A stretch of 64,000 nucleotides of DNA from Candidatus Latescibacterota bacterium (lineage in GTDB: Bacteria > Latescibacterota > UBA2968 > GCA-2709665). A model generated the notes under the pieces. That model searched no databases. It saw only the letters and a program-made list of their open reading frames with translations, and was not told where the DNA came from. The stretch covers positions 4,544,001 to 4,608,000 of the forward strand of contig OZ241917.1 in assembly GCA_965203805.1 (NCBI GenBank), written 5' to 3'. A program made the translations under genes and the position numbers. Position 1 is the first letter of the stretch. Each line of letters begins with the position of its first letter. Shown here one piece after another: positions 6,685 to 25,041 of this stretch.

Positions 6685-7529
6685 GGCTGGAAACGCTTCG
6701 CGAAGAGTCGGACACCTGGAAGCGTAAACGCCATTCGTACAAGTGTAAGAGAAGCATGCCCACAATCTTAGCCCTCTAGCGTTTCCATTCGACCTGCGGT
6801 CTGAATGCAATGCAGAGTTTACGTATCGGGTCTGCAGCATGAGCATTTTGCAAAGTCTACGCCGGATTCGTCGGACCGGCCAGCGTGTGAGGAGAGAGGC
6901 TCGAAATTGGGGCCGTGAGTCCATAGGGTTCATCAATCTCAATTGGCGCCATCTTGTGATTTCTGTCACGTTGATGGCTATTTTGTGGATCGGCACCTCG
7001 AGGCTTATAGATATCTGGAACTGGCTAGCCACCGACTTCTGGACTTGGCTGCGAATGGGCTCGAATGGGACCGAAACCCACAGCACGACCCTTCGCAATG
7101 TCGGTTTGCTCTTTGGCGGGGTATTGGCCTTACTGGTTGCGTTGTGGCGCAGTTGGGTAGCAGAGCGGCAAGCCAGAATTGCACAGCGAAATCTATTGAA
7201 CGAACGCTATCGACAAGGTGCCGAAATGCTTGACAGCAAAGTCTTGGCAGTTCGCTTGGGTGGGATCTACGCACTACAGCGTCTCGCAGCGGACAATCCG
7301 AAGAAATATCACATACAAATCATGCAGCTATTGTGTGCATTTGTACGTCATCCACCTGCCGTCGACGGCGAGAAGAATGAACCGTTTGCAGGCAACCAAA
7401 CCGATCTCGAATTGCGCAATGACGTGCAAGATGCCATAAACTCAATCAGCACATGCCATGCGCGACAGACCAAACTGGAGGTTGCAGCGGGCTTTCGACT
7501 AGTGGTCCATTTCGGAAGTATGTATCAGG

Positions 7530-8680
7530 TTAGGCAGCGATCTTGAGTTCGCGGAGCCTTTCTTCAAGGTCGCATTTGGTGAATCGCCATTTGAAGGGTC
7601 TCGAAGTTTGGTTATAGCGACGCTGAAATCCGAGGATGCGGTCTTCCATTTGCTTTCTGGTTGCGAGGTCGTTGGGCGTGAGCGCCTTTCTTTGAAGGAT
7701 GGAGAAGTAGATCTCGATCTGGTTGAGCCCTGCCTGCGGCAGGCAGGCAGCTTGCGTGGACGGGAAGATGGATGGCGATCAGGTTCGGGTAGGCGTTTTT
7801 GAGTCGTGCAGGGGAGGTCGACGGGTGATGGGAAGGCCCATTGTCGAGGATCCAGAACACGCGTTGTGCCGAAGCATAGGGTTCCTGCTTCATCACGAGG
7901 TCGACCAGCCTCTGAAAGGGTTCGATACCCGTGGTTTGATCCACACGACCAAAGACCCTTCCGCTCCTGATATCGAGTGCGGCCAGGTAGGCCACGGTCC
8001 CGTGGCGCTTGTAGTCGGACTCACAGTGAATCGGTTTTCCCGGTCCCGGAGGTGAAGAAGGGAACTCCCGCTCCAGGATCTGGAGCTGCGATTTCTCGTC
8101 CGCACTGAGAACGTAGTCTTTGGGCCCCAGGGGCGCGCCCTCATAATCCCCTTGATACAGATCCAAAACAGGGCCCGCTTTTTCCAGAAAGCGTGGATCT
8201 TTGATCGAGATCCACGATCGGTGAAACCAGGGACGAATGGCGTCCCGTTTGAGGAGACGCCACAGCGTGCTTTTAGAGATCGACAGGCTTGTCTCGGAAC
8301 GGATTTCCTGAAGCAGTTCCGCGAGGCTGAAGCGGGATAGCGGGATCTCCCGCACGGCTGGCAATTGGCAGGCGATGGCCTTAATTTCAGCGACGCGTTC
8401 GGGGGGGAAAAACCGGAGGCCTTCCACTACGAGGCCGATCCAGCAGTGAAAAACCCTCTGTAGCCCAGCGCTTTCGCCATTTCATCACCGTTCTGGGGTG
8501 CACGCCAACTGCTTGCGCAAGACGCTCGTGCGAGATATCCGGATGCTCCCACAAAACCAAGACCATCTTGGCCCTGTAAACAAGGGCGCTGGGGGCCGTT
8601 CGTTGTCGGGCTATCCTACCCGCTTCCGCGATATCCTGTGTCTCAAACTGCGGTTGATACTTCGGCTTCGGTCCAGGCAT
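7530..8680 (-). pseudogene. IS630 transposase (HTH orfA + DDE orfB) frameshifted by a 19-bp insert
   Basis: DRPRSGRP HTH end, GGTTTTTCCCCCCC slippery site near 8401-8414, SADEK, ILDN, HAS(W)LNQIE broken at 7729-7747. Confidence 0.88.
7729..7747. repeat. 19-bp palindromic insert CCTGCCTGCGGCAGGCAGG
   Basis: Removing it restores HASWLNQIEIYF and an open frame to the stop at 7530. Confidence 0.9.
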
Positions 8681-9761
8681 CGGTTACCTCCCAACACGGG
8701 CGGGGAGACAACCCTATTATAAGAACGCTACCGGCTACAGACAACATTATACCAATTTCTGAAATCGACCACTAGATCTGCGTGGCGTGAATCTGCGCGG
8801 TGCGGTTTTGCTCAAAGCACGGCTCAGCAAAGCGAATCTATCCAAAGCTGACCTAACCGGGGCGGCGCTAAGCGATGCCGATTTGGCTGGTGCAATCTTT
8901 GGCCACGCGATTTTAAACGATGCACGGCTTAACGGTGCAGACTTAAGCGGTAGCAAATTCAACAATGCACAAATGTGCAGAACCCAACTCCCCGGTGCGA
9001 ACCTGGCTAAATCGGACCTCTCGAACGCAGAACTCGAAGGTGCCCGAGTGTCCGAAGCGAAATTGTCAAAGGCAAACCTCTACAGAGCGAACCTAACCGG
9101 TGCATTCCTCCAGAACTCCGATTTGTCGGAGGCAAGGCTTCAATGCGCGAATTTGACCGCCGCATGGCTATATAATGCTAAGTTGGCAGGGGTGAATCTT
9201 TCAAACGCAATATTAAGCGAAGCGGACTTTAGTGGGTCAGATCTTTTGAATGCGAACCTCTCCAATGCCAATGTGTCCAACACACGGCTTTTCCCATTGC
9301 GACCTACATCGCCCCGAGTAGGCGAGAGACCGATTCGACGAGAGATCCCGACGAAACTCACTCAGGCTCAGCTTGATGTCGCCTGCGCAGAACCTGAGAA
9401 ACCACCAAAGCTGGGTGATGCCGTGGATGCGGAAACTGGCAATCCACTGGTCTGGCGTGGCAAGTCTCTGAACAGGCAAAGGTAGACGTATGAAAGTGCG
9501 CGATCTTTATTGTAGCCTGCGTCTGAGCTTGCAGTGACCCATAATTAAAATAAGTATCTCGTATCAAATGAATGTTTGGATGTCTGGGGATGGCGCGTCT
9601 GGCGACGTTCTCTACATTCTGCACCGAGCCGGTCGCCGCAACGTGTGCTGCACGAACAGTTCGGGTTGTTCGGTGAAGGAACCGACAAGCAATTGAGAAA
9701 AAGACGTAGTCGCTATCGAATTTCGTGCGGCAAATCTACGGGTGAGAAGGGAGAAAAAATC

Positions 9762-12593
9762 GTGACGTCAGATCGAACAAGGAGTTGGCGTTACCCGGGC
9801 GCTCGTTGGTGGAAATTCGACTTCCACACCCACACCCCCGAGTCGAAGGACTATGGTCAAGGACCCAACCAAACAGCCCTAAGGCAGATTAAACCGAAAG
9901 AATGGTTGTTAGCCGTTATGCGTGTTGGCGTAGATTGTGTGGCGATAACGGATCACAACTCGGGCGATTGGACTGACAGGCTTAAAGAGGCACTCCAGGA
10001 ACTAGAGTGTGAATCTCATCCGGATTTTAGACCGCTTTACCTGTTTCCTGGTGTTGAAATTACCGCCAACGGTGGAACCCATATATTGGCGATACTGGAT
10101 ACAAGCAAGTCGTCTGCCGATGTGGCGACGCTTCTTGGCGCAGTTGAGTACCACGGTGAACGCGGCGCTTGTGAAGTCACTGCAAACAAATCGCCAATTG
10201 GCGTCGTCGAAGCTATTGTTGACTTTGGTGGTATTCCAATTTTGGCACATGTGGACGAGCCAAGTGGAGCCTGGAAGCTTAAGGGAAACACGCTTAGCCC
10301 GCTGCTCGAATTCGATGGTTTGTTTGCAATGGAAGTTGTCGATCCGAACGCAAAAAAACCCGCAAAGTACCGACAGATGAAGCTAAAATGGGCAGAAGTT
10401 CTTGGATCGGACTCACACGACCACACCGGTAAGACTGGATCCCGTGTTCTTGGTTCCGACTACACATGGGTAAAGATGGCGGAACCGTCTCTCGAGGGAC
10501 TGCGCCTGGCATTGCTGGACGGCGGTGGGTTTTCAATTCGGCGTAGTGATGATTTGAGTCCTTTCGATCCTTTTAGATTGCCCGATCACTTCGTCGAGGC
10601 TTTGGAAATTGAAGATGCGCAATATATGGGACGAGGCGAATCGGCAAAACTCAGCTTTAGTCCGTGGTTAAACGCTATGGTAGGTGGACGAGGGACGGGA
10701 AAATCAACAGTAATTCATGGAATAAGGCTTGCTTCAAGACGAGAGCAGGAGTTGTCGAAATTTGAAGAAAACTGCGAGCCCCGCTTGATCTTCGAGCAAT
10801 TTAACCGGGTGCCTGGGGACCGCACGGACCGTGGCGGCTTGACAGATTCGACGGAAATCAGGTGGACCGTAATGCGAAACGAAGTTCGGTATCGCGTGCG
10901 TTGGCGGCGCGACGGCTGCGGGACAGTGGTAGAGGAGAACGCAGGCGAAAACTGGGTTCCGTCAAGCATTCAAAGTGTTACGCCCGAGCGCTTTCCAATC
11001 CGGATTTTTAGCCAGGGACAGATTGCGGCGTTGGCCGGCGAGAACCAACAGGCATTGTTGCAGGTGATTGACGATGCCGCTGGAGTGGTTAGGCTACAAA
11101 GGCAACTCAATGATGCTATAAGCGAATTCTATGCGGCGCGGACGCGGATTCGCGAGATGGATGGAAAATTAGTTCGTTGGGACGATCTAAAAGTTGATAT
11201 GCAGGATGTGGAGAGGAAACTGGCTCGTTTTGAGGAAGCCCGCCATGGGGAAGTTCTGACGAGCTACCAACGCCGAAGCCGACAGAAAAGGGAAATGGAA
11301 CGTCAGTTCGAAGCCGCCGATGGCACCGTACGGGTTATTGAAGATACAATTGCTGTGCTGCAATCCGAGGATGTTCCAGACAGGTTGTTCGACACGGATT
11401 CCGACGAAGACCGCGAAGCCATCGCCACCATCGATGCACTGGCTTCCGCAGTCCGCACGGCAGGCGAAACCCTTAAAGGAGCCGCGGAGAGTCTCCGAGT
11501 CGTCATCAACACACAACGGGACGAATTGTCAAAAAGCAAATGGCAGAGGGCTGTAAATCAAATCGTGTCTGAATACAAGCAACTGGTCGAAACACTTCAA
11601 TCGGAGGGTGTCTCCGATCCGAGCGAATACGGCCGACTCGTGCAGGAAAGGCAGCGACTCGATAGCGAAATCGAACTTCTGGAGTCGTTAAGTAAAGAAC
11701 GGGACGAGCTGAATGAGCGATCCCGAACGTTGCTCGGGCACGTACAAGAAGCTCGGCGCGCTGTGAGTGCTGCACGAGAGGACTTCCTTGAAGATGCACT
11801 GGCGCAGAACAACTTTGTAAGAATCCGAAACCTTTCATACGGCGATGACCCCCGTGTTATCGAGGGTGGGTTGCGCGAGGCATTAGGCGTTCTCGACGAT
11901 CGATTTCAGCTTGACATTTTGGATATGGATGACGAGTCGCGGGTGAAAGGAATCGTTGCAGAACTGCTGAATGACTTGCCGGACGAGTCTGCCCAACGCC
12001 GTTCTGAACTGGAACGCCGTATTGACAATCTAAAAGACCGCTTTGACTCTGCTTGTAAGGGTCGCGGAGACTTTGGAGGTCACTTCAACAACTATCTGGC
12101 GCGTGAATTTAACAATAAGCCGGAATTCCTTGACCGATTGCTTGCCTGGTTCCCGGAGGATTCGTTAAGGGTGGAATACAGCCGTCAAGGAGACGGTAGA
12201 GACTTCAGGCCTATTACGCAGGCTTCGTCCGGACAGCGGTCGGCGGCGATGCTGGCATTCCTACTCGCACACGGCGAGGAACCGCTGGTGCTGGACCAGC
12301 CGGAGGACGATTTGGACAATCACTTGATCTATGACCTGGTAGTACGCCAGATCCGCGAAAACAAACTGAGGAGACAAATCACAGTTGTGACACACAACCC
12401 GAACATTGTGGTAAACGGAGATGCCGAGATGTTGCATGCGCTTGAATTTGTGAGCGGACAGTGCATTGTGCAGCAATCTGGGTCTTTGCAGCAGGAGGCC
12501 ATGAGGGAGGAGGTCTGCCGCGTAATGGAGGGCGGGCGCGAAGCGTTCGAGCGCCGCTATCGCAGACTTGGACCGGAGCCAACCCATGTTTGA
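9762..12593 (+). CDS. PHP phosphoesterase + SMC/ABC-like ATPase (TrlF/Ppl-like defence protein)
   Basis: DFHTHTP, ITDHN, GVE, AH, GSDSH PHP motifs; GGRGTGKS, coiled coil, SSGQ, LVLDQPEDDLD, VTHN; GTG 9762 has an RBS. Confidence 0.88.
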   Translation: MTSDRTRSWRYPGARWWKFDFHTHTPESKDYGQGPNQTALRQIKPKEWLLAVMRVGVDCVAITDHNSGDWTDRLKEALQELECESHPDFRPLYLFPGVEITANGGTHILAILDTSKSSADVATLLGAVEYHGERGACEVTANKSPIGVVEAIVDFGGIPILAHVDEPSGAWKLKGNTLSPLLEFDGLFAMEVVDPNAKKPAKYRQMKLKWAEVLGSDSHDHTGKTGSRVLGSDYTWVKMAEPSLEGLRLALLDGGGFSIRRSDDLSPFDPFRLPDHFVEALEIEDAQYMGRGESAKLSFSPWLNAMVGGRGTGKSTVIHGIRLASRREQELSKFEENCEPRLIFEQFNRVPGDRTDRGGLTDSTEIRWTVMRNEVRYRVRWRRDGCGTVVEENAGENWVPSSIQSVTPERFPIRIFSQGQIAALAGENQQALLQVIDDAAGVVRLQRQLNDAISEFYAARTRIREMDGKLVRWDDLKVDMQDVERKLARFEEARHGEVLTSYQRRSRQKREMERQFEAADGTVRVIEDTIAVLQSEDVPDRLFDTDSDEDREAIATIDALASAVRTAGETLKGAAESLRVVINTQRDELSKSKWQRAVNQIVSEYKQLVETLQSEGVSDPSEYGRLVQERQRLDSEIELLESLSKERDELNERSRTLLGHVQEARRAVSAAREDFLEDALAQNNFVRIRNLSYGDDPRVIEGGLREALGVLDDRFQLDILDMDDESRVKGIVAELLNDLPDESAQRRSELERRIDNLKDRFDSACKGRGDFGGHFNNYLAREFNNKPEFLDRLLAWFPEDSLRVEYSRQGDGRDFRPITQASSGQRSAAMLAFLLAHGEEPLVLDQPEDDLDNHLIYDLVVRQIRENKLRRQITVVTHNPNIVVNGDAEMLHALEFVSGQCIVQQSGSLQQEAMREEVCRVMEGGREAFERRYRRLGPEPTHV

Positions 12594-13845
12594 TAGTCAA
12601 AAGGAACTGCTTGACAAGATTCAACTGGGCGAAGACACGTTTCTGGAATGCAAGGAGGTCCGGTTTTCGGGAAAACGTGTTTCCGACCCACATCGCGACT
12701 CTCTCGCCGACTCCCTTGCCGCCTTTGCAAACAGCCAGGGAGGAATCTTGGTGATGGGCGTGGAAGATGAATCACGTGAGATCCTGGGTATTCCCCTTGC
12801 ACGTCTCGATCTGGTGGAGCGATTCGTTCATGAGATTTGCCAGGACTCCGTCGATCCACCCCTTTCGCCGACTATAGAACGGCTAAGGCTGCCAGCGACC
12901 ATCGGAGAGGAGGTAGCGGTCATCAAGATAGATGTGCGCCCCAGTCTGTTTGTGCATCGAAGTCCGGGTGGTTACCTGCATCGAGTCGGAAGCGCCAAAC
13001 GGGTTATGCCCTCTGACTTTCTGGCTCGTCTATTTCAACACCGTAGTCAGATTAGCGTCATTCGCTTTGATGATCAGGCGGTTCCTCAAGCCGAACTGGA
13101 CGACTTGAACGATGATTTGTGGCAGCGGTTTTTAACTTCCCGGTCGCGCAATCAGCGCGACGACTTTCTTTTTAAGCTGGGCATGGCGCGAATGGAATCC
13201 AACGGCTCGATCCGTCCAACGGTAGCGGGCGTCCTGATGGCAGCCCGTGATTCCCGGACTTGGCTGCCTAATGCCTACATTCAGGCTGTCGCCTATCGGG
13301 GCGAGCAAATCCGAGTGGAGCAATCGGGTGACCCGTATCAGATTGATGCTGCCGATATCTACGGTCCGTTGGATACCCAGGTTACCGATGCCTGTCGATT
13401 CGTAATTAAGAATATGAAAACAGCCGCAGATAAGGAACTAGGGAGGCGTGACCGCCCGCAGTTCGACATTACGGCAGTTTTTGAGGCATTGGTCAATGCA
13501 GTCGCCCATCGTGATTACTCCATTCACGGCTCCAAGATCCGACTCAGGATATTTTCCAACCGGCTAGAATTGTATTCACCTGGGGCGCTACCAAATACGT
13601 TGACAGTCGAAAGTCTCCCATACAGACAGTCAGCTCGCAATGACGCGATATGCAGCCTGCTCGCCCGATGTACAGTGCCCGCAGACGTGCCCTGGCTTGT
13701 CACCGACCGTGAAACGCTTATGGACAAGCGGGGCGAAGGCGTGCGCATTATCTATGACAATAGTGAAACGCTTTCGGGACGATTACCTGAATACAGTTTG
13801 ATCGACGATAGTGAGTTGCGGCTCGTAATCTGGGCCGCGAAATAG
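12586..13845 (+). CDS. AlbA_2 (Schlafen-like) + HATPase_c_4 domain protein
   Basis: GEDTFLECKE, AFANSQGG, EALVNAVAHRDY, LELYSPG; overlaps upstream stop. Confidence 0.88.
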   Translation: MFDSQKELLDKIQLGEDTFLECKEVRFSGKRVSDPHRDSLADSLAAFANSQGGILVMGVEDESREILGIPLARLDLVERFVHEICQDSVDPPLSPTIERLRLPATIGEEVAVIKIDVRPSLFVHRSPGGYLHRVGSAKRVMPSDFLARLFQHRSQISVIRFDDQAVPQAELDDLNDDLWQRFLTSRSRNQRDDFLFKLGMARMESNGSIRPTVAGVLMAARDSRTWLPNAYIQAVAYRGEQIRVEQSGDPYQIDAADIYGPLDTQVTDACRFVIKNMKTAADKELGRRDRPQFDITAVFEALVNAVAHRDYSIHGSKIRLRIFSNRLELYSPGALPNTLTVESLPYRQSARNDAICSLLARCTVPADVPWLVTDRETLMDKRGEGVRIIYDNSETLSGRLPEYSLIDDSELRLVIWAAK

Positions 13846-13889
13846 CTCGTTGGCTCGCAGGCGACGTTGATTTCCGATGAATCAATCCA

Positions 13890-14327
13890 ATGAATATCTC
13901 AACCATCGGCTTTACGAGAAAGCCCGCAAGCCGTTTCTTCGGCTTGCTGATGCAGTCAGGCGCAAGGCGCGTCGTCGACGTTCGGCTAAACAACGCGTCG
14001 CAATTGGCCGGCTTTGCGAAGAAGGACGACCTGGCGTATTTCCTGCGGGAACTCTGTGGGATGGACTCCATCCATCTGCCCGAATTGGCGCCGACGAAGG
14101 AATTGCTGGACGATTACAGGAAACGGCGGTTTGACTGGGAGACCTGCGAGAACCGTTTCAACGGGCTGATGTGCGAGCGGCGGATCGAGGAGACGGTTCC
14201 GATTGAGATCGTCGCGGATGGTTGTCTGCTGTGCAGCAAGGATAAGCCGCACCGCTGCCATAGGCGGCTCGTGGCCGAGTATCTGAAACACCATTGGGGC
14301 GACGTGGAAATCGTCTACCTCGGATAG
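13890..14327 (+). CDS. DUF488 family protein
   Basis: ISTIGFT, VVDVRL, LLC...CHRRLVAE. Confidence 0.88.
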   Translation: MNISTIGFTRKPASRFFGLLMQSGARRVVDVRLNNASQLAGFAKKDDLAYFLRELCGMDSIHLPELAPTKELLDDYRKRRFDWETCENRFNGLMCERRIEETVPIEIVADGCLLCSKDKPHRCHRRLVAEYLKHHWGDVEIVYLG

Positions 14328-14395
14328 TTGGTTAAGCATGGATGTGCCGGCCTCGGAGACATTCATACCGATCATGGTAGACCGAATTGTAGAAG
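14212..14395 (+). repeat. direct repeat copy 1 (DUF488 3' end + MNT 5' end)
   Basis: Highly similar to 17565-17748 at a constant offset of 3353. Confidence 0.9.
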
Positions 14396-14663
14396 GCTTC
14401 CAGCCTTCTCGGCTCGTTCTCTTCGGTCCCATGCACATGGCACGGCCACCGACACAAGTGACGTAGACTTGCTGGTAATTCTGCCCAATGGGTCTGACAA
14501 GCGGGATACGGCTATCGAGGTCCGCCGCGCCCTGGGAGATCTCCCGGTTTGCAAGGAAATAGTGATTGCCACTCCCGGGGAAGTCACTCGTCGCGGTCAT
14601 CTTGTTGGTACCTTGTTGCGTTCAGCACTCCGCGAAGGAAAGGTACTGTATGAGCGATCCTGA
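14338..14663 (+). pseudogene. MNT nucleotidyltransferase antitoxin, frameshifted
   Basis: MDVPASETFIPIMVDRIV start in one frame and SDVDLLV...REGKVLYERS in another; intact paralogue at 17691. Confidence 0.8.
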
Positions 14664-14832
14664 ACACGTTGACCGAACTCGCCGATGGCTTCGTTTCGCC
14701 ATGGAGGATCTCGACGTTGCCCAATGCTTGCTGGCGACGGATGGCTCACGACCTCGCCCTGGAAGCGCGGACGTCTCGCTCACATGTCCCGTAGAATCCA
14801 CCGACTTTGGCGATTTTGTCTTAAGATTGTGA
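14650..14832 (+). pseudogene. truncated HEPN toxin
   Basis: MSDPEHVDRTRRWLRFAMEDLDVA HEPN-like start overlapping the MNT end; similarity is lost after ~36 aa. Confidence 0.65.
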
Positions 14833-14907
14833 CAGACACATTACCAATATTCGCCTCCCTATTTCGCTACTCCAACACGGTCACTCTCAAAAGAAGGTAC
14901 GGACGCC

Positions 14908-16044
14908 ATGTCTGAAGAACGCCCGGGCACCTGCCTGCATCTTCCGGATCTGTCGATAACCGGATTTCGGGGAATCGCGTCGCTAACCATTAAGCGGTTG
15001 GGTCGCGTTACGCTGCTTGCGGGAAAGAACAGCGTCGGCAAGACAACCGTTTTGGATGCCGTCCGGGTCTACGCGGCGCGCGGTCGCCCTTTCATTCTGT
15101 CCGACGTGTTGAAGAGCCACGAAGAGGTGGCTGCCGCTACGTATCGCGGTGACAAAGAGGGAATTGACCCTCATCTGGAGGCGCTCTTCCACGGACGGGA
15201 CGCTTCCGGGGAGGCGTCCTTCTCGATCGGCCCGGATAACGGTTGGGACCAGCTTAGAGTTGAAGCGATTCCCCCAGATAAAGCCACTCGTCCTAGTCAT
15301 GGACATCCCCCCGATTTTTTCGTGGCGCCAACAAGATTGCTTAAAATCGTCAGTCAAGACACTGAGCAGATAATTCCCTGGTATTTCTCTCCCTATGCGT
15401 TGAGTACCAAATTGGCCAAAAGTCGCCGTATATATCAGTATCTCTTGAATACGTCTGCAGATTACGACCTACCAGCCGCAATCGACTGCCGGTCCATGGG
15501 TCCGGCCCTGTTGAGCAAGGACGAAGTCGTGGTCTTTTGGGATGACATCGCGCTGACCGACGATGAGGAATGGGTGGTCAATTCCCTGCAGCCTGTTCTC
15601 GGCGACCAGGTACAGCGCATTGGGACAATCGGAGATAACAGTAACGGACGACGGGTGATCGCCAGAGTCCGGGGGCAGTCCTTTCCGGTCCCTCTCGAAA
15701 GCTTTGGTGATGGGGCCCTGCGCCTGTTCGGCACTGCCCTGATGCTGGTCAACAGCCGGGACGGCTTCCTGCTCATCGACGAAGCGGAAAACGGCATTCA
15801 CCATACCGTCCAACGCGATTTCTGGCGCATGGTACTTGAGACCGCGGACCAAAACAACGTGCAGGTTCTCGCGACAACGCACAGCTATGACTGTGTGCGA
15901 GGTTTTGCGCAGGCGGTTAACGAATGCGAGGGAATCGACGGGGGGCTTGTGCGTCTCGAACGTAGCGACAGGGAAATGTGGGCAGTTGAGTATTCGGAAG
16001 ATGATCTCAAGGTCGTTGCTGATCAACACATTGAAGTGAGGTAA
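14908..16044 (+). CDS. AAA_21 family ABC-type ATPase
   Basis: GKNSVGKT, FGDG, LLIDEAENGIH, TTHS. Confidence 0.9.
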   Translation: MSEERPGTCLHLPDLSITGFRGIASLTIKRLGRVTLLAGKNSVGKTTVLDAVRVYAARGRPFILSDVLKSHEEVAAATYRGDKEGIDPHLEALFHGRDASGEASFSIGPDNGWDQLRVEAIPPDKATRPSHGHPPDFFVAPTRLLKIVSQDTEQIIPWYFSPYALSTKLAKSRRIYQYLLNTSADYDLPAAIDCRSMGPALLSKDEVVVFWDDIALTDDEEWVVNSLQPVLGDQVQRIGTIGDNSNGRRVIARVRGQSFPVPLESFGDGALRLFGTALMLVNSRDGFLLIDEAENGIHHTVQRDFWRMVLETADQNNVQVLATTHSYDCVRGFAQAVNECEGIDGGLVRLERSDREMWAVEYSEDDLKVVADQHIEVR

Positions 16045-16048
16045 ATTG

Positions 16049-16663
16049 ATGGATAATGGTGACCGTGTCCTGCTTGTTGAAGGACAAGCCGACAAGCACG
16101 TCGTCTCACATCTATGCTCAAGATTTCAGCCAATGCCCCAATTCCATATAGAAGATAAGGGCGGTATCCAAAAGCTCTTTGATTCGATTATTCAGGAAGC
16201 CAGAGTTTCCGACCGCAAAGCCCTCGGTATTCTCTTAGACGTAATCGACGATTTGAACGCCCGATGGAGTGCCGTGACTGATCGGCTTCAAAAAGAGAAT
16301 ATCGAGGTTCCTCGTACCCCTGAACCAACCGGTACCTTAATCGACGGCACCGTCCGTACCCCTCGAGTTGGCATCTGGTTGATGCCCGACAATTCATCAC
16401 CCGGCGAACTCGAAGACTTCGTTGCGGAAATGGTTCCAGACGATGATCCAATATGGCCGCGAGCCCGCCGTTACATCGACTGCATTCCAGAGGCGGATCG
16501 TAAGTTTACTGAGAAAAAGATACAGCGAGCCAGGATCCACGCCTGGTTAGCGACTAGAAAGGAACCCAGGAAGATTGGCACCGCCATTTATACGGGAGAT
16601 TTGCGCGTTGATGGAAGACTCAGCACAGAATTCGCGGAGTGGCTAAGGGAATTGTTTAAATGA
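16049..16663 (+). CDS. DUF3226-like TOPRIM-type protein
   Basis: LLVEGQAD, GIWLMPDN..PGELEDF motifs; follows the ATPase. Confidence 0.75.
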   Translation: MDNGDRVLLVEGQADKHVVSHLCSRFQPMPQFHIEDKGGIQKLFDSIIQEARVSDRKALGILLDVIDDLNARWSAVTDRLQKENIEVPRTPEPTGTLIDGTVRTPRVGIWLMPDNSSPGELEDFVAEMVPDDDPIWPRARRYIDCIPEADRKFTEKKIQRARIHAWLATRKEPRKIGTAIYTGDLRVDGRLSTEFAEWLRELFK

Positions 16664-16667
16664 GCGA

Positions 16668-17501
16668 ATGGAAGATATTTTGACTCCTGCTGAACAAATC
16701 GCAAAGGACACCTGGGAACGATTGAAACAGTCACGCGAACTCCAGACCCGGTTGGGAGAGGTAACCCTTACTGATTTGCTCGTTTTGGATTTCGTGCGTT
16801 TCATGGATGGTCGCGCCAGGTTATTTCAAAGTACCAACAAACAGGAATCGAAACGGGGGACCGATCTCGAGATCCGGATTCACGCCGGATGCAATCGAGC
16901 CGTCGCGTTTGCACTGCAAGCCAAGAAGCTGTATCCAGATGAAGGGTATCGTGAATTAAAGACCACGGTGAAGTCATCGAACTCTCTTCAATTGGACATA
17001 CTTGAGGATTATGCTGAATCAGTGTGCGCTGTCCCACTCTATCTACTGTACAACTACGTGTGCTGGGATGATTTACAGCCATATTGGCATTGCCGTGAGC
17101 GCCTCAACGTAGACATCGAACAACTGGGTTGTACCGTGGTACCAAGTCGGATAATTCGGCGTGCGATTTGTAAACGCGGACGCAGGAACTTCGAGTGGAT
17201 CCACAGATCCAACCATGTATTGCCGTGGCGTTGTCTTTTCAACTGCCCGCACCAATGCACGCAGCGCTATGACAGCGAGTACATTGAACCAGTTGATGGC
17301 GGGTGGCCTGACTGGCTTTGGTCTCGAAATAGCACGACGTTTTCTGACGAAGACGTGGACAGATTGCGTGAGGAGATTTCAAACCGAGAGATATCGAGGC
17401 GGAAATTGGAACAGTCCGATATTCCAGACGGATTTGGACATACCGACGAGATTGGCGAACTGCCAAGTTACCTCATCTTGGTCAAGGAGAAGACCGGATA
17501 A
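16668..17501 (+). CDS. putative PD-(D/E)xK nuclease (DUF6615-like)
   Basis: ESKRGTDLE...ALQAKKL and PLYLLYN motifs. Confidence 0.65.
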   Translation: MEDILTPAEQIAKDTWERLKQSRELQTRLGEVTLTDLLVLDFVRFMDGRARLFQSTNKQESKRGTDLEIRIHAGCNRAVAFALQAKKLYPDEGYRELKTTVKSSNSLQLDILEDYAESVCAVPLYLLYNYVCWDDLQPYWHCRERLNVDIEQLGCTVVPSRIIRRAICKRGRRNFEWIHRSNHVLPWRCLFNCPHQCTQRYDSEYIEPVDGGWPDWLWSRNSTTFSDEDVDRLREEISNREISRRKLEQSDIPDGFGHTDEIGELPSYLILVKEKTG

Positions 17502-17564
17502 ACAGATCGAATGTAGCACGACGCTAATCCCGCGGTGCCTCGGCAACCGTTCCGAACAAACTAC

Positions 17565-17748
17565 TCGCGGACGGTTGTCTGCTGTGCAGCGAAGATAAAC
17601 CGCACCACTGCCGTAGGCGGCTCGTGGCCGAATATCTAAAACACCATTGGGGCGACGTGGAAATCGCCCACCTCGGATAGTGGGTTAAGCATGGATGTGC
17701 CGGTCTCGGAGACATTCATACCGATCATGGTCGATCGGATCGTCTCGC
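17565..17748 (+). repeat. direct repeat copy 2 (orphan DUF488 3' end + MNT start)
   Basis: Encodes GCLLCSEDKPHHCRRRLVAEYLKHHWGDVEI with no DUF488 N-terminus. Confidence 0.9.
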
Positions 17749-18029
17749 GGTTCACACCCTATCGCGTGATTCTGTTCGGATCGCATGCACGTGAAAGGGC
17801 CGGCAAGTGGAGCGATATAGACTTCCTCGTGGTGTTGCCGAACGGCACTGATCGACGTCACGCGGCTGTTGAAATTTATCGGGCGCTGGGAGATTTGCCC
17901 GTGGCCAAAGACATTGTCGTGACCACGCCAGAGGAGATCGAACGTCGCGGTCACGTCGTCGGTGGTGTGCTGTACGAAGCGCTTCGTAATGGAAAAACCA
18001 TCTATGAACGACCCCGTGCGCCTTCGTGA
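17691..18029 (+). CDS. MNT nucleotidyltransferase (antitoxin)
   Basis: ILFGSHAR, SDIDFLV, KDIVV. Confidence 0.88.
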   Translation: MDVPVSETFIPIMVDRIVSRFTPYRVILFGSHARERAGKWSDIDFLVVLPNGTDRRHAAVEIYRALGDLPVAKDIVVTTPEEIERRGHVVGGVLYEALRNGKTIYERPRAPS

Positions 18030-18230
18030 AGCGCGTCGCTTGTTTCATTTCGAGACGGGAGATCTCGTTTTCGGACAACGCTTCTTGTCGGCCAACGGCG
18101 CTTGACGTCGGCACACCCGATCCGTCGTCTAACAAATTGACAGATCGCCAATATCCGTCAGCGGTACTACGACGCGAACTTCGAGACCCAGGACATCCCG
18201 CATTTGATAGCGAGCTCGGTATCTATTTCG
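18004..18230 (+). pseudogene. decayed HEPN toxin
   Basis: MNDPVRLREARRLFHFETGDLVFGQRFL aligns with the 14650 HEPN start, then in-frame stops; end approximate. Confidence 0.5.
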
Positions 18231-18456
18231 AATGAACTGTGTCAGAGGAGCGATTGCATTGTGACAAGCGATGACACAAATTTCGGCGCAATGCCCGAAA
18301 CAAGGAAATTCAACGAGCTTGCTTCGCGCGAAGCGTTGCTTATCTGGACTATGGATTGCACGCAACTACTGTGAAGTTCTGTCAGGCGTGACCTCAAACG
18401 TCGGCTTCACCAGGAGACCTTGCCGCCTTGTCTTTGACAGATAGGGGAATTGAACC

Positions 18457-19632
18457 ATGCAAATTGAGCAGATTGAGATCAAAAACTACCGTCCCTTCCG
18501 CCACGCGGTCCTCGGAGCTCTGCCGCGCATGGTCGTAGTTGTCGGTGCAAACGGCTCGGGCAAATCAACGCTCTATGATGTATTCAGCTTTCTAAAGGAT
18601 GCGCTGACCCAAAATGTAGCCACGGCGGTCGCCAGGCGAGGCGGATTCCAGGAGCTTGTCAGTCGTGGAGAAAACGGCCCGATCGGTATTACGATTAAAT
18701 TTCGAGAGAAAGGCGGGCGGCTGGCCACATATGTCCTTCAAGTGGCCGAAGATAGTGGACGTGTCGTCGTCCACCGCGAGATTCTACGCTACCGGCGGGG
18801 GCAGTATGGAAAGCCCTGGCATTTCGTTGATTTTTCGCGCGGTACGGGAACTGCGATCACAAATGAGTCCGTGTACGGCCAAAAAGGCGTCGTCGAAGAA
18901 CGGGAAGAGTATGAGCTCGACGATCCAAGCATCCTGGCGATAAAGGGTTTGGGCCAATTCCGTGAATTCCGTGTTGTATCGGAGTATCGTAGCCTGGTTG
19001 AGAACTGGCACGTGTCGAATTTCCACATTGCCGACGCCCGGCCGAGTGTCGACGCTGGCTTCGCCGAACATCTGTCCAGCCGAGGTGACAATGTCGCCCA
19101 AGTCGCCCACTATCTTTACGAGAATCACCGCGACTCGTTCGACCGAATTCTAAGGGCGATGAGTCACCGCGTTCCAGGTGTTAGTAGAGTAGAAGCCAAA
19201 CCCACGGAGGACGGACGTCTGGTTTTACGCTTTCAGGATGGAAGCTTCAAGGATCCATTCATCGCCCGCTACGTCTCCGACGGCACCATAAAGATGTTTG
19301 CATATCTCGTAATGCTCTATGACCCCAGACCTCATCCCTTGTTGGCAGTCGAAAAACCTGAAAACCAACTGTACCCCGAGCTGTTGGTTGAGCTAGCTGA
19401 GGAGTTTCGCGACTACGCCCAGCGAGGAGGTCAAGTGTTTATTTCAACACACTCACCTGATTTCCTGAACGGTGTGGAACTCGAAGAGATCTTCTATTTG
19501 GTCAAGAAAAACGGCTTCACGACTGTGCGCCGAGCATCCGAGAGCGAGTTGCTACGCAACCTCGTCGACGAAGGGGATTTACCAGGTTCTCTCTGGAAGC
19601 AAAGGCTGTTTGAGGGAGTCGGACTACAATGA
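18457..19632 (+). CDS. AAA_21 family ABC-type ATPase
   Basis: GANGSGKS, VSDGT, LLAVEKPEN (atypical Walker B), STHS. Confidence 0.9.
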   Translation: MQIEQIEIKNYRPFRHAVLGALPRMVVVVGANGSGKSTLYDVFSFLKDALTQNVATAVARRGGFQELVSRGENGPIGITIKFREKGGRLATYVLQVAEDSGRVVVHREILRYRRGQYGKPWHFVDFSRGTGTAITNESVYGQKGVVEEREEYELDDPSILAIKGLGQFREFRVVSEYRSLVENWHVSNFHIADARPSVDAGFAEHLSSRGDNVAQVAHYLYENHRDSFDRILRAMSHRVPGVSRVEAKPTEDGRLVLRFQDGSFKDPFIARYVSDGTIKMFAYLVMLYDPRPHPLLAVEKPENQLYPELLVELAEEFRDYAQRGGQVFISTHSPDFLNGVELEEIFYLVKKNGFTTVRRASESELLRNLVDEGDLPGSLWKQRLFEGVGLQ

Positions 19633-20168
19633 GGCACATTGTTTTCCTTCTGGAGGAGTTCTCAATGGGCGGCTTTCTGGATGTCTTGCTGCCGAGAATT
19701 TTTCCGGATCTGTCCTTTCAGTGCGTGCCCCACGAGGGTAAACAAGACCTTGAGAAGAGTATCCCTCGCAAATTAAGGGCGTGGCGCGAGCCGGGTGTAC
19801 ATTTCTGCGTGATTCGGGATAACGATAGTGGCGATTGTCACGCACTGAAGGAAAGGCTTATCGCACTATGCGAGTCGGGCGGCCGGGATGACACCTTGAT
19901 CCGCATCGCTTGCCAAGAGTTGGAGGCCTGGTATCTGGGAGAACCGGATGCAATCGCGGAGGCGTTCGCTAACGACAAGCTGCGGATGATCGGAAAAAAA
20001 GCGCGATTTCGCGATCCAGACGCCGTCGTCAGACCATCTGCCGAAGTCCGAAAGCTCGTACCTGAATTCCAAAAGGTTTCGGGTGCTCGCCGCATTGCCT
20101 GCTATTTGACCCGCGACAGGAATAGGTCGGCTAGTTTCCGAAATCTTCTAGTACCCAATGACGGCTAA
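19629..20168 (+). CDS. DUF4276-like TOPRIM-type protein, C-terminus displaced by IS630
   Basis: VFLLEEFSM, IRDND, ELEAWYLG; the native tail continues at 21395-21475. Confidence 0.8.
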   Translation: MRHIVFLLEEFSMGGFLDVLLPRIFPDLSFQCVPHEGKQDLEKSIPRKLRAWREPGVHFCVIRDNDSGDCHALKERLIALCESGGRDDTLIRIACQELEAWYLGEPDAIAEAFANDKLRMIGKKARFRDPDAVVRPSAEVRKLVPEFQKVSGARRIACYLTRDRNRSASFRNLLVPNDG

Positions 20169-21320
20169 AGAGCCTCGTAGTCTGGATACAGTTTTTTCAG
20201 TTTGATGCGAGCATCGTTGGTCGTGAACCGCCAATTGACAGCCTTGCTTTTGTTGTTGCGGTCGTTTGTCCAGGCGGAGACCTGCTCTTTGAGGGATTCG
20301 ATATCGGGGATGCGTTCCTTCAAGCATTGGTTGCTCAAGACGCTCATTTCGATCTCGGCAATGTTGAGCCAGCTTCCGTGTTTGGGCGTGTAGTGGATTT
20401 CGAGACGCCTGGCCAGACGGCGCGCCTCTTCGGGTGGGAACGCCTTGTAGAGTGCCGCCTGCCTGCCGGCAGGCAGGCGGGCGTGTGCGTGTTGAGGTTA
20501 TCACACACCAACACGACGGTTTCAGCTTTTGGGTAGTCCGTATTCAGGAGATCCTTGATCTCCTGGGCCCAGTCCAGTGCGGTCTTGCGTTGTCTTACAC
20601 ACACCTTGCGCCAGCCCGAAAGCGGTTCGGTGAACATGAAGTTCACGGCGGTTCCGTTCCGTTCATACTCGTAGTCGTAGCGTTCAGGTTGGCCCCGACG
20701 TGTTGTGAGGGGAACACGCGTCTCCTTGACCAACTGCACCGGGTGTTCGTCCATATTGACCACGGGCCTCAAGGCGTCGTAGGGCCGCTGATAGACGTCC
20801 AGGATATCCTCCATCGCGGCGACAAACGCGGCGTTCTGCTTGGGCGGAATCACCCAGCACCTTCTCAGGTGAGGCTTAAGTTTGTTTTTTTTAGCGTCCG
20901 TTGCACCGTTCGATAGGAGATGCTATCGACGATCTCTAAAGCCACGAGTTCATCGGCTAAAAGCTTCAGCGTCCACCGCTTACGTCCCTTTGGAGGTTCA
21001 CTGCAAGCCAACGCGATCAATCGGGCTTCCTTCGCACCATCGAGCTTTCTTGGTGTGGGAGGATGCGCGCGCTTCTTTCGCTCGAGGGCCGAATCCAGGC
21101 CCTCCAGCACATAACGCTTCCGGATGTTCTCGACCGTTGACCGATTGAACGAAAAGGCCTCCGTGATCTGTCGATCCAACCAGGACGGACCCTCTGCATC
21201 GGCCTTGAGAAGCACGTGGGCGTGCCTGATTCGGAAGGCTTGTGTCTTGCCTTTGCTTACCAGATCCTGCAGTTGCTCGCGTTCTTCGGGACTCAGACGG
21301 ACAATGTATTTCTTCGGCAT
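20165..21320 (-). pseudogene. IS630 transposase (orfA HTH + orfB DDE) frameshifted by a 20-bp insert
   Basis: RWTLKLLA, A-run slippery site near 20885-20892, NMDE, CDNLNTH, TPKHGSWLNIAEIE; frame broken at 20458-20477. Confidence 0.9.
20458..20477. repeat. 20-bp perfect palindrome CCTGCCTGCCGGCAGGCAGG
   Basis: Removing it restores DNLNTHTPAALYKAFPPEEARRL. Confidence 0.92.
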
Positions 21321-21474
21321 GCCGATGGCTCCTTTGTCTTCAGGGGAGACATCGAACTATAAGCACGTGCAGTCTTAGAAGTCAATAGGTACTAGACGGA
21401 ATCGAGCAATTATGGCAAGATTGCCTTTTCGAGAGTGAGTGTCGTCCATCAACCTTCGATGAGGGAAAGGGATA

Positions 21475-24400
21475 ATGGCCGTTACCAACCGTGAACGCGT
21501 CGAAAAGGCGCTCGATCTATTGAAGGCGGGATTGGGTCCATTCGTCGATCGCGAAGTCAAAAGTGCATTCAAAGCAAAGCGATTGGACCAATACGGCTTC
21601 CACCATTATCAGGATGACGCAAAACTCAAAGGCAAGCCCGTTACCGAGTGGGATGCGGCCGCTTTGTTGAAGTTGATGTGGTCCACGTGGAACGACGTGT
21701 TCAAGTATACGCTCGGGCATATCGAACGTAGTCTCGTCTCCGAACTTCGCGACTGGCGCAATAAATGGGCGCACCAGGAACACTTTTCGAGCGACGATAC
21801 GGACCGGACCCTCGACTCCGCGGAGCGGCTGCTTACAGCGGTTTCGGCATCCCAGGCGGACCAGGTCAATCGAATGAAGGTGGAACTTCGCCGTCTGGTA
21901 TTTGACGAACAGGTCCGGGGGGAACAACGCAAGGCGGGGGCGCTTGTCGAGTCCCCGGGCGCACGCGCGTTGAAACCCTGGCGCGAGGTGGCAATGCCGC
22001 ACAAGGACGTCGCTACGGGCGGGTACCAGCAGGCGGAGTTCGCAGCGGATTTATGGCAGGTTCATCTTGGAGAGGGTTCGGACGAGTATCGCGACCCACA
22101 GGAGTTCTTCCGCCGCACGTATCTCACAGAAAGCCTGAGACGTCTGCTGGAAGGAGCGGCGAGACGTCTGGCAGGTACGGGAGGCGACCCGGTGGTGCAG
22201 TTGCAGACCAACTTCGGCGGCGGCAAAACGCACTCGATGTTGGCGCTTTACCATCTTTTTTCCGGAATAGCGTCCGGAGAGCTCGAGGGCATGGACGAGG
22301 TGCTGGCGGGCGCTGCGGTCGAAACGCCCCCGTCCGTACGGCGCGTGGTGCTGGTTGGAAACCGAATCTCACCGGGGAATCCAGTGGAAAAATCGGACGG
22401 CACGGTGGTGCGTACGTTGTGGGGCGAACTTGCGTACCAGCTTGGCGGTCGCGATGCGTTCGAGCGCCTCCGCGCGGATGACGAGAAGGCCACAAATCCT
22501 GGCGATACGCTGCGGGAATTGTTCAACGACTACGGACCTTGCGTGGTGCTCATCGATGAGTGGGTGTCATACGCGCGGCAACTGCACGATGAAGGCGACC
22601 TGCCCGGCGGCAGTTTCGAGACGCAGTTCACGTTCGCGCAGGCCCTCACCGAGTCGGTAAAACTCACGGGCAACTGCCTGCTGGTGATTTCGCTGCCGGC
22701 TTCGGACACGTCGGATTCGGGTTCGCCGCATACGGAGGCTGACGATGCGGAGGTGGGCGGTATTCGGGGCCGAAGCGCCCTCGAACGCTTGCGAAATGTA
22801 CTCGGGCGTGTGGATTCGCCCTGGCGTCCGGCGAGCGCCGAGGAAAGCTTTGAAATCGTACGGCGCAGGCTGTTCGAGCCGCTCGCGGGGACGGACGCCT
22901 TTAAGCAGCGCGATGTGACCGCGCGCGCTTTCGCGGATCTTTATCGCGTACAGCACGGGAATTTTCCGGCTGAGTGCCGCGCCATGGATTATCAGAAGCG
23001 CATGATGGCCGCGTACCCTATCCATCCCGAGATATTCGACAGGCTTTACACGGACTGGTCCGCGCTCGCCAGGTTCCAACGGACTCGCGGCGTTTTGCGA
23101 CTGATGGCCACGGTCATCCACAGTCTTTGGGAGAGTGGCGACCGAAATCCACTCATTCTGCCGTCCACCATACCCATTGACGATCAGCGGGTGCAGAATG
23201 AACTGACGCGGTATCTGCCCGAGAATTGGACGCCCGTTATCGAAAAAGACGTTGACGGTCCGGGCGCATTGCCGCTCAGGATCGACGCCGAAGTACCGCA
23301 TCTCGGGAAGCTTTCTGCTGCAAGGCGCGTGGCACGTACGGTCTATATCGGATCGGCGCCGACCCGTGCGGCGGCTCAGCGGGGTATCGACGACGCGCGG
23401 GTCAAACTGGGTTGCGCCATGCCGGGGGAGACGCCAGCGGTTTTTACGGACGCGCTTCGCCGGCTTGCGACGGCGGCAACCTATCTGTACCAGGACGGAC
23501 CGCGCGTGTGGTACGACACGCAACCGACGGTTACCAAGCTGGCCGAAGACCGCGCCGAGCAGTTGAGGACCCATCCCGACGAGGTGGCGGGCGAACTGGA
23601 AAAGCGACTCGAATCGGACTTGCGCACGGCCGGAGATTTCGAGCGTATCCACTCACTCCCCCGTTCGGGGGCGGACGTGCCCGACGATCTGGACGCGCGG
23701 CTGGTCGTGCTATCAGCGGAGCAACCGTATTCGAGAGAGCCGGACAACGTAGCGGAAGCCGCCGCAAAAGAGATCCTGGAGATGCGCGGCAACACGCCGC
23801 GGCTTTACCGGAATACGCTGGTTTTCCTCGCGGTGGACAAAGTGCGGTGGCAGGATATGGATGAAGCGCTTCGCAAGTATCTGGCGTGGAAGTCGATTGT
23901 CGAAGACAGGGTCGAACTCAATCTGGATCCGCATCAAGGCCGCCAGGCCGAGACTCAAAGGAATGCAGCTGACGACACCGTGACCGCTAGACTGCCAGAG
24001 GCGTATCAATGGCTGCTTGTGCCCGAGCAGTCCGACCCGCAGGCGGCGATGTCATGGAATGCGATCCGTCTGACGGCGTCTGGAGGGCTCGCCGAACGGG
24101 CTTCGAAGCGTCTGCGCAGCGACGAGATGCTGGTAATGGGGCTCGGTGCGAGTGTGCTGCGCAAGCATCTGGACGATGTGCCACTCTGGCGTGGCGATCA
24201 TGTCGAGGTACGGCAACTCGTTCGGGATTTTGGTCAGTTTCTCTACCTGCCGCGCCTGGCTGGGCCGGATGTGCTAATGCGCGCTATAGAGAACGGCGTG
24301 AATACCACTGACTGGAAAATGTACGGCTGCGCTGTTGCGGAGAGTTACGACGATAGCGAGAGCCGCTATATTGGGCTCCGGCACGCCGAAACGCTCAGTG

Positions 24401-24798
24401 TCTTACCGGAGAGCAGGCAACTGGTCGTGAAGCCAATAGTTGCTGAACAACAAATAGACGCGGAGAGAATAATAGAAGAAGGACCGGTGACGCCGGGCGG
24501 AGGTGGGGAAGAAAACGGAGGCGAAGATGATCCACATGTTCCGGATCAGCCACCCGAGCAGAAAGCCCGGCGGTACCATGGCTCCGTGACACTGAATCAC
24601 CAGCGCGTGGGTCGTGACGCGAGCCAGATCGCAGACGAGGTGATCGCACATCTGTCGGGGATCGTGGGTGCGGACGTGACGGTTACGCTGGAGATCCACG
24701 CGGAAATACCCGATGGAGCCCCTGAAAACGTGGTGCGGACCGTTACCGAGAACAGCCAGACCCTCAAATTCGAGAGCCACGGGTTTGAGGAGTCGTAA
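21475..24798 (+). CDS. Swt1-like HEPN + DUF499 AAA+ ATPase
   Basis: N-terminal RNKWAH (Rx4H HEPN), KPWREV..PH.DV, QAEFAADL, TNFGGGKTH, LIDEW, YPIHP, FQRTRGVLR. Confidence 0.92.
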   Translation: MAVTNRERVEKALDLLKAGLGPFVDREVKSAFKAKRLDQYGFHHYQDDAKLKGKPVTEWDAAALLKLMWSTWNDVFKYTLGHIERSLVSELRDWRNKWAHQEHFSSDDTDRTLDSAERLLTAVSASQADQVNRMKVELRRLVFDEQVRGEQRKAGALVESPGARALKPWREVAMPHKDVATGGYQQAEFAADLWQVHLGEGSDEYRDPQEFFRRTYLTESLRRLLEGAARRLAGTGGDPVVQLQTNFGGGKTHSMLALYHLFSGIASGELEGMDEVLAGAAVETPPSVRRVVLVGNRISPGNPVEKSDGTVVRTLWGELAYQLGGRDAFERLRADDEKATNPGDTLRELFNDYGPCVVLIDEWVSYARQLHDEGDLPGGSFETQFTFAQALTESVKLTGNCLLVISLPASDTSDSGSPHTEADDAEVGGIRGRSALERLRNVLGRVDSPWRPASAEESFEIVRRRLFEPLAGTDAFKQRDVTARAFADLYRVQHGNFPAECRAMDYQKRMMAAYPIHPEIFDRLYTDWSALARFQRTRGVLRLMATVIHSLWESGDRNPLILPSTIPIDDQRVQNELTRYLPENWTPVIEKDVDGPGALPLRIDAEVPHLGKLSAARRVARTVYIGSAPTRAAAQRGIDDARVKLGCAMPGETPAVFTDALRRLATAATYLYQDGPRVWYDTQPTVTKLAEDRAEQLRTHPDEVAGELEKRLESDLRTAGDFERIHSLPRSGADVPDDLDARLVVLSAEQPYSREPDNVAEAAAKEILEMRGNTPRLYRNTLVFLAVDKVRWQDMDEALRKYLAWKSIVEDRVELNLDPHQGRQAETQRNAADDTVTARLPEAYQWLLVPEQSDPQAAMSWNAIRLTASGGLAERASKRLRSDEMLVMGLGASVLRKHLDDVPLWRGDHVEVRQLVRDFGQFLYLPRLAGPDVLMRAIENGVNTTDWKMYGCAVAESYDDSESRYIGLRHAETLSVLPESRQLVVKPIVAEQQIDAERIIEEGPVTPGGGGEENGGEDDPHVPDQPPEQKARRYHGSVTLNHQRVGRDASQIADEVIAHLSGIVGADVTVTLEIHAEIPDGAPENVVRTVTENSQTLKFESHGFEES

Positions 24799-24849: not shown

Positions 24850-25041
24850 ATTCCCGGGAACGAGGGCATCCCTGCCCTCGCCGGCAGATGCGCGGAGCCG
24901 CGGTGCCGTCATTTCCGAAATGGAATTGGATGCAAAAGAAGCAGCAGGCCCTTGATATAGATATTGGTAGGTCCTGCGAAGTTCGAGGGCAGGGATGCCC
25001 TCGGTCCGGATACTGGTGGATCATGTACTGATGTAGGGCAG
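24850..25041. repeat. REPIN-like element copy A
   Basis: CGAGGGCATCCCTGCCCTCG (24861-24880) and inverted copy (24984-25003) around a conserved spacer; homologous to 33921-34112. Confidence 0.85.

Follow-up and report, generated by a model that had tools for sequence, protein, structure and literature searches.

Base-exact insertion of a 19-20-nucleotide palindrome in two IS630 transposase genes of a Latescibacterota genome and in other bacterial genomes

What is a perfect palindrome of 19 or 20 bp doing inside the transposase genes of two different insertion sequences (ISs), and how did it get there? Here, we describe these two palindromes, the hairpin family to which they belong and its occurrence in other genomes, starting from a window of 64,000 nucleotides (nt) of a Candidatus Latescibacterota bacterium (assembly GCA_965203805.1, contig OZ241917.1, positions 4,544,001 to 4,608,000 of the forward strand). 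The genome that holds the window is a single contig of 5.87 Mb with 59% G+C and is labelled G000; G001 is a sister genome, G041 is a gammaproteobacterial genome, and L numbers denote loci. Both palindromes are likely to be independent insertions of a tiny, non-coding and non-autonomous mobile DNA hairpin that lands widely and is moved by an enzyme acting in trans.

Two interrupted transposase genes and their hairpin family

The two palindromes and the ISs that host them lie in the window as follows:

7729-7747, no strand assigned: perfect 19-bp palindrome CCTGCCTGC-G-GCAGGCAGG, with 9-bp arms and a centre of G; a minimal member of the family
20458-20477, no strand assigned: perfect 20-bp palindrome CCTGCCTGC-CG-GCAGGCAGG, with 9-bp arms and a centre of CG; a second minimal member
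~7498-8775, minus strand: IS630 element 1, host of the 19-mer, with Pfam domains DDE_3 and HTH_Tnp_Tc3_2_like; extent set by alignment to the copies in genomes G002 and G013
~20148-21395, minus strand: IS630 element 2, host of the 20-mer, with Pfam domains DDE_3 and HTH_32

Both palindromes were located where an initial annotation of the sequence had reported them, each breaking the transposase of a distinct IS630 element. They lie inside minus-strand open reading frames (ORFs) with Pfam DDE_3 and helix-turn-helix domains of the IS630/Tc1 type, and each host, with its DDE_3 transposase, N-terminal helix-turn-helix domains and length of ~1.2 kb, fits the definition of IS630; the two hosts are different ISs. 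The palindrome at 7729-7747 interrupts the W codon of HAS-W-LNQ, between GAGC and CAGC, and the one at 20458-20477 stands directly after the DNLNTHTP codons. Element 1, present as a single copy in the window genome, has its transposase in two overlapping frames, as do its intact relatives. A pattern search allowing up to two mismatches found the 19-mer once in the window and not at all in 100 shuffles of it.

Full-length homologues of both ISs are present in related genomes (86-90% identity) and include empty sites. Site 1, that of the 19-mer, is empty in G002 and G013, from which exactly 19 bp are absent, and site 2, that of the 20-mer, is empty in G003, G013, G008, G010 and G012, from which exactly 20 bp are absent; no target base is duplicated or lost at either site, just as the initial annotation had claimed. 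Its further claim, that taking out the palindrome restores the reading frame, holds as well, with ORFs of 306-310 amino acids (aa) open across the site in empty copies L290 and L291 (site 1) and L298 (site 2); in the empty copies L299 and L300 the ORFs are shorter, at 253-259 aa. One IS copy in G001 carries the identical 20-mer insert at the identical site 2.

The chance that the palindromes are artefacts of assembly or sequencing is negligible. Contigs assembled from public runs X5 and X6 contain both inserts and span the two palindromes with no differences; the runs probably represent the source sample, so they rule out an assembly or polishing artefact and do not constitute independent biological replication. 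The same-site insert in the G001 copy and the presence of the 19-mer in isolate genomes of other phyla also argue against an artefact. The empty form of either window site was not found in the read-derived contigs, which drop rare variants and have no bearing on excision.

The window palindromes are the smallest members of a family of hairpins with ends CCTGYCTG...CAGRCAGG (the CCTG family), in which CCTG stands twice on one arm and CAGG twice on the other, and whose units, of 19-36 nt, are often nested. A genome-wide search, as the initial annotation had proposed, yielded 15 copies of the minimal palindrome (centre of 1-2 nt, being A, T, G, C or CG) and, with the relaxed ends given above, 228 merged family loci of at most 130 nt each. 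Base composition predicts ~48 occurrences of the 9-mer arm CCTGCCTGC, whereas 279 were counted on one strand and 270 on the other. Among arm pairs no more than 300 nt apart (n=164), the commonest interior is 15 nt (65 pairs), giving a 33-bp imperfect palindrome that is the dominant unit; interiors of 9, 13, 19 and 45 nt recur as well, the long ones being units nested within units. The relaxed ends add further subfamilies of 21, 27, 30 and 36 nt, the asymmetric members of 27-36 nt exist as many identical copies, and rare members have three repeats on one arm. Most family loci sit in small intergenic repeats, and most copies were seen single or nested. One copy of a DDE_Tnp_1_4 transposase (G000:C1:433500-434735, L004) holds four family members (21, 21, 33 and 19 nt) in 1.25 kb, and its paralogues hold none or few.

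The initial annotation had seen no other copy in the 64 kb. This is correct for the strict palindrome and not for the family, since a relative with the same type of ends lies in the window:

3652-3678, no strand assigned: 27-nt family relative with ends CCTGCCTG...CAGACAGG, nested in the loop of another hairpin repeat (3645-3688), within the long ORF 2977-6684

Exact insertion, recombination and spread

Insertion of the unit (19-20 nt when minimal, 21-36 nt when the interior is longer) is exact, and the target is neither duplicated nor lost. In an empty-site test, the joined flanks of each candidate were searched against the window genome, and a paralogous site lacking the element was found for 123 candidates. 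The empty site is gapless and identical over 6 nt on either side for 96 of the 123, which collapse to 30 distinct junctions, with 0 bases duplicated or lost at any of them. These exact filled/empty pairs support the earlier proposal of a minimal hairpin element whose insertion leaves no target-site duplication (TSD). Entry in the window lineage is usually between G and C: the junction is G|C in 23 of the 30, and G occupies position -1 in 51 of 60 half-sites, compared with 29% G genome-wide. Weak preferences for C/G appear at -2 and -3, and the flanks are otherwise variable, with a bias at -1 only. Insertions favour the loops of other hairpin repeats, as well as a single fixed position within the 33-mer, and the element nests both in other hairpin repeats and in other members of its own family. 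In G041, 24 of 35 distinct junctions have complementary bases on the two sides of the element (A|T, G|C or C|G), compared with 5 and 10 in two controls, and paralogous ISs of this genome differ by the presence or absence of exactly 19 bp.

Neighbouring copies can also recombine and delete the DNA between them. In one copy of a transposase gene, 99 bp separate a 33-mer from a 19-mer; another copy has a single hybrid element and has lost the 99 bp. Two more copies of IS630 element 2 (1663562 and 2176237) carry the 19-mer and lack ~88 bp between site 2 and the SW|LN site; in this deleted form the 19-mer joins the site-2 junction to the SW|LN junction, which is the position hit in IS630 element 1. 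The deleted joint is present in the read-derived contigs as well.

Palindromes of this kind might instead be repair scars, with tails of CCTG repeats added to the ends of double-strand breaks and fused head to head, or excision footprints of a larger element, as the initial annotation had considered. Each arm does consist of CCTG repeated two and a quarter times, the centre is variable, and there are the rare three-repeat arms. But such an origin is made very improbable by the exactness of the 30 distinct junctions and the IS sites, at which target bases are neither lost nor gained, by the many identical copies of the asymmetric members, and by the lack of a long multi-copy element bounded by these ends. 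Pairs of ends 400-4000 bp apart number 91 against ~72 by chance, with a lone repeated region of ~450-470 bp; no parent element was found among them, and the proposed search for longer elements with these ends, and for the enzyme that they encode, gave none. A footprint is further contradicted by the first 400 kb of G041, where the bare 19-mer makes up 68 of 70 family copies and is the main proliferating unit. Together with the exact 19-bp differences between paralogues in that genome, this indicates that the 19-mer itself proliferates and is not a deletion remnant of the 33-mer.

The distribution of the family is patchy among kin and wide beyond them. Counts compared across 40 relatives and the window genome gave, within the family of genomes, 173 copies in G001, 129 in the window genome, 121 in G015, 110 in G016, 71 in G011 and 31 in G007, and 17 of 19 genomes of the sister family have 0 copies. 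A scan for the 19-mer with one genome per species found at least 120 stretches, and the matches listed include Acidobacteriota, Bacteroidota (cultured isolates among them), Ignavibacteriota, Gammaproteobacteria, Planctomycetota, Desulfobacterota-type genomes, candidate phyla and others. Many of the matching genomes have 31-45% G+C, so that an 18-base match rich in G+C cannot be due to chance. Five unrelated genomes hold 522 (G041), 45, 11 (the isolate G044), 5 and 3 family copies, and cultured carriers include Robertkochia flava with 11 copies and Algoriphagus taiwanensis with 3. The element thus occurs in many phyla.

Habitat, a multi-copy IS5 and the mobilising enzyme

Exact junctions, the lack of duplication and the preference for hairpin loops point to single-strand cutting and joining. 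The hairpin would move as a folded single strand, and a structure-specific enzyme acting in trans would cut and rejoin at the foot of the hairpin, by HUH-like or comparable chemistry. It would land widely and persist only where it is harmless, as in intergenic repeats and transposase genes, and ISs may also ferry it between genomes. Four sets of observations weigh against this explanation. The first concerns the target: complementarity of the -1 and +1 bases was not found in a mixed cross-phylum set (17 of 79 junctions, the same as in controls), and the target rule differs among lineages. The others are a concentration of the shortest units in ISs, which counts against pure tolerance, an IS5 that multiplied with its inserts, and the lack of a linked enzyme.

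ISs are clearly a favoured habitat for the hairpin. The 15 minimal copies of the window genome represent 8 distinct events, of which 7 hit transposase genes (those of two IS630 types, of an IS5 with DUF772 and DDE_Tnp_1 domains, and of two DDE_Tnp_1_4 types) and the eighth lies at the 5' edge of a glycosyltransferase gene. Repeats of at least 700 bp, which constitute 2.3% of the genome, contain 45 of the 228 family loci (20%), and such IS-sized repeats hold 12 of the 18 loci with units of up to 21 nt. Similarly, eight copies in G041 are found in 1.9 kb of IS3/IS481-like and IS5-like genes (L335 = G041:C1:360001-380000, 560-2440), with paralogues at 376-378 kb and 391-393 kb; five 19-mer inserts are common to the three copies, and others are polymorphic.

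On the strength of these counts the hairpin could be held to target IS DNA specifically, as a transposon-silencing mechanism. We regard this as quite improbable, and of the IS preference suggested by the initial annotation only the favoured habitat stands. Outside the IS-sized repeats lie 183 of the 228 loci, and the four IS families that were hit share no target sequence beyond one base. The IS counts of the window genome are inflated by copies made through IS duplication (15 of the 45 loci belong to one IS5 present five times), as are the IS-gene counts of G041 by copies inherited in the same way. If the intergenic fraction is set at ~10% of the genome, an assumed null value, ISs make up about 1/6 to 1/5 of the dispensable DNA, close to the 20% observed. 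The same IS5, with three inserts, made five copies, which is the opposite of silencing.

Nor do ISs dominate in the sister genome. G001 has 64 minimal copies, of which 50 were examined, by their flanks and not by gene calls; 34 of the 50 occupy one position of one small repeat unit, which in the window genome carries 33-mers or nothing, about a dozen are in other short repeats, and one is in IS630. The longer units are depleted in long ORFs, with a median spanning ORF of 173 codons versus 462 at random positions (a stop-to-stop measure that is crude at 59% G+C). An insert of 19-20 nt shifts the frame, and in coding DNA it therefore persists only in dispensable genes such as those of ISs. Because frameshifting copies are tolerated only there, we read the IS association as survival, perhaps with long residence, and not as targeting. 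Wide insertion with survival in dispensable DNA, the other alternative offered by the initial annotation, fits the locus counts in both the window genome and G001, and these do not fit dedicated transposon silencing.

Survival in dispensable DNA does not explain the IS5 itself. This element of 1310 bp carries a 27-mer and a 36-mer in frame plus a frameshifting 19-mer that splits its DUF772 domain, and its five copies (G000:C1:1308656-1309965 and four others, L003) are identical over 1310 bp, each with a different 4-bp target duplication. Its homologues in G002 and G013 have none of the three inserts and show ORFs of 325-329 aa on the transposase strand, and the homologue in G007 has the 36-mer only, at the same site. 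No other homologue of the IS5 transposase was found in the window genome (tblastn, E≤1e-5), nor was another element with the IS5 ends found in this single-contig genome, in which a relaxed inverted-repeat search returned single-copy chance pairs. Continued transposition of an IS5 that bears three of them hints that inserts of this kind may not inactivate their host. Possible solutions are a helper off the assembled chromosome, gene conversion, reversible excision of the 19-mer, or its skipping at expression.

More generally, the hairpin might not inactivate genes at all, if it were removed at the RNA level, passed by ribosomal frameshifting or bypass, or excised precisely and often, and the ISs would then stay active as its vehicles. 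The five identical IS5 copies with their five target duplications and no helper found are consistent with this, as are the G041 IS copies that share five 19-nt inserts and are also multi-copy. Such harmlessness nevertheless has a low probability in our estimation: no matched take-off and landing codons were seen by eye, an unassembled plasmid could supply a helper, the inserts could have spread by gene conversion, and a segmental duplication may account for the G041 copies, all of which lie within 32 kb.

As for the enzyme that would move the hairpin in trans, only two matches to Y1_Tnp (IS200-like, of the type of REP-associated tyrosine transposases, RAYTs; REP, repetitive extragenic palindrome) were found in the window genome. 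RAYT1 lies 10 kb upstream of the window, and RAYT2 lies inside it:

3682-4257, plus strand: RAYT2, a RAYT-like Y1 (HUH) transposase domain, in frame within a DUF1156 methylase ORF; a candidate mobiliser that was not supported

An ordinary REP/REPIN family moved by these RAYT (Y1 HUH) transposases is an alternative that we consider unlikely. Both Y1_Tnp genes are near the window palindromes, and a close RAYT1 orthologue was found in 6 of 41 genomes (the window genome included), all with at least 11 family copies, a co-occurrence that is only suggestive because these kin genomes are not independent. Hairpin insertion without TSD is also the activity that this enzyme class is thought to have, according to passages in PMC3116915 and PMC3733652, and the HUH-type chemistry put forward in the initial annotation is compatible with the junctions. 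Gene content, however, lends that chemistry no support. Both flanks of RAYT1 and of its 5 orthologues carry GAGGGCA-N3-4-TGCCCTC hairpins, the usual RAYT arrangement with a hairpin different from that of the CCTG family, which bears no GTAG or CGTC tag; the lone CCTG-family copy beside RAYT1 is an insertion into one of the GAGGGCA hairpins. RAYT1 is lacking in G015 (121 copies) and G007 (31 copies), and Y1_Tnp, present in G000, G001, G043 and G045, had no match in G041 (522 copies) or G044 (11 copies). No family members were found within 1.5 kb of RAYT homologues at any of 80 loci from other phyla. The RAYT/Y1 genes of the window genome are probably not the mobilising enzyme.

Other candidates fared no better. 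IS110 (DEDD), TnpB and IS91 (Y2) are each absent from at least two of G000, G001, G041, G043 and G044, so that none of four transposase families that leave no target duplication (Y1, IS110, TnpB and IS91) is common to all carriers, serine recombinases and reverse transcriptases being outside this test. The protein family recurring most often beside the palindrome did so at only 8 of 80 cross-phylum loci in an all-against-all comparison of ORFs.

A bolder version of the mobile-hairpin explanation can be formulated, in which the 19-nt hairpin is a complete mobile unit, the smallest described, spread over phyla, moved by a hairpin-processing activity outside the known TSD-less transposase families, and harmless to its host transposase genes, since it would be reversibly excised or skipped at expression, so that ISs stay mobile and ferry it. 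We find this combination doubtful as a whole.

The GAGGGCA hairpin and RAYT1 are a classical REP/RAYT pair in a Latescibacterota genome. The repeat GAGGGCA-N4-TGCCCTC is also found in inverted pairs of ~120 bp (window 24862-25231 and 33933-34073; L001 300-2500). Homologues of RAYT1 that are 67-71% identical, closer than some matches in its own family, occur in genomes labelled Thermodesulfobacteriota, Binatia and Entotheonella (L080-L082), which suggests horizontal transfer of RAYT1. The RAYT2 domain is bracketed by hairpin repeats of its own (3645-3688 and 4342-4358) within the 1235-aa DUF1156/N6-methylase ORF (2977-6684, plus strand); the embedded Y1-methylase arrangement recurs in G008, G011 (twice) and G016, in open frames of 1203-1441 aa, and for this reason looks like a conserved fusion and no accident. 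An apparent defence island surrounds both ISs (1011-3010, 19629-20168 and 21475-24798), with genes for an AAA_15/AAA_21 ATPase, a DUF4276 protein, a DUF499 protein with a Swt1-like HEPN domain and the DUF1156 methylase.

Known systems and significance

Several known classes of small repeats resemble the CCTG hairpin in part. The small dispersed repeats (SDRs) of heterocyst-forming cyanobacteria, reportedly described by Elhai et al. in 2008 (Genome Res 18:1484), are said to be mobile hairpins of 21-27 nt, their mobility judged from filled and empty sites, to lie frequently inside other repeats and inside mobile elements, and to have no known transposase. The CCTG hairpins likewise have a scale of ~20 nt, filled and empty sites, and nesting in repeats and mobile elements; they differ from SDRs, as reportedly defined, in sequence and host range, the unit here being 19-20 nt and common to many phyla. 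Palindrome-associated transposable elements (PATEs) derived from IS200/IS605 insert as hairpin-dependent single strands, without TSD, 3' of a fixed target of 4-5 nt, and have two different subterminal hairpins. The CCTG hairpin also inserts without target duplication, but it is one symmetric hairpin with a preference for one base, shows other junction classes in other lineages, and has carriers without Y1. In yeast mitochondria, GC clusters or byps are palindromic inserts in ORFs that ribosomes skip, leaving the host gene functional; the comparison with byps is relevant only to the unexplained active IS5.

The closest likenesses are to SDRs and to the REP/REPIN-RAYT system. According to passages in PMC3116915 and PMC3733652, REPs are short GC-rich palindromes in many copies, mostly extragenic and sometimes genic, nested, without target duplication, and thought to move as single-strand hairpins. 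PMC3733652 also records that REP families of the CGTC type can lack a dedicated transposase and that REPs may lie within other palindromes or within genes; nesting, genic copies and a transposase-less superfamily are therefore not new here. Unlike REPs, the CCTG family has neither a GTAG nor a CGTC tag, has a perfect palindrome of 19-20 bp with a 1-2-nt centre as its minimal unit, is not found beside RAYT genes, has a top carrier without Y1, and is identical in sequence in many phyla. DDE-type miniature inverted-repeat transposable elements (MITEs), such as Nezha and Correia (mentioned in PMC3184786, which says nothing of SDRs, and in PMC3733652), share with it a non-autonomous nature and inverted-repeat ends; MITEs measure 70-300 bp and make target duplications, whereas the CCTG hairpin made none at 30 junctions and no parent element was found for it. 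Rickettsia palindromic elements (RPEs), mobile GC-rich palindromes in coding genes as presented in a passage of PMC3733652, are palindromic inserts inside ORFs as well, but are ~100-150 bp long and in frame; like byps, they bear only on the active IS5.

The exact 19-20-nt strings were not found in the literature searched, and the literature on REPs, RAYTs, TSDs and bypassing, supplements excluded, was searched without a description of the element being met. New here are the 19-nt unit, its identity across phyla, the many base-exact filled/empty pairs and the failure of every test for a link to RAYTs. The spread of REP-like hairpins has so far been argued mainly from RAYT association, with few direct insertion events. 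Dozens of base-exact filled/empty pairs (19-36 nt), along with carriers that lack the expected transposases, make the mover of such tiny palindromes testable, also by way of the cultured carriers. For annotation, many 'frameshifted' transposases in genomes of this kind are the work of one recognisable insert of 19-20 nt.

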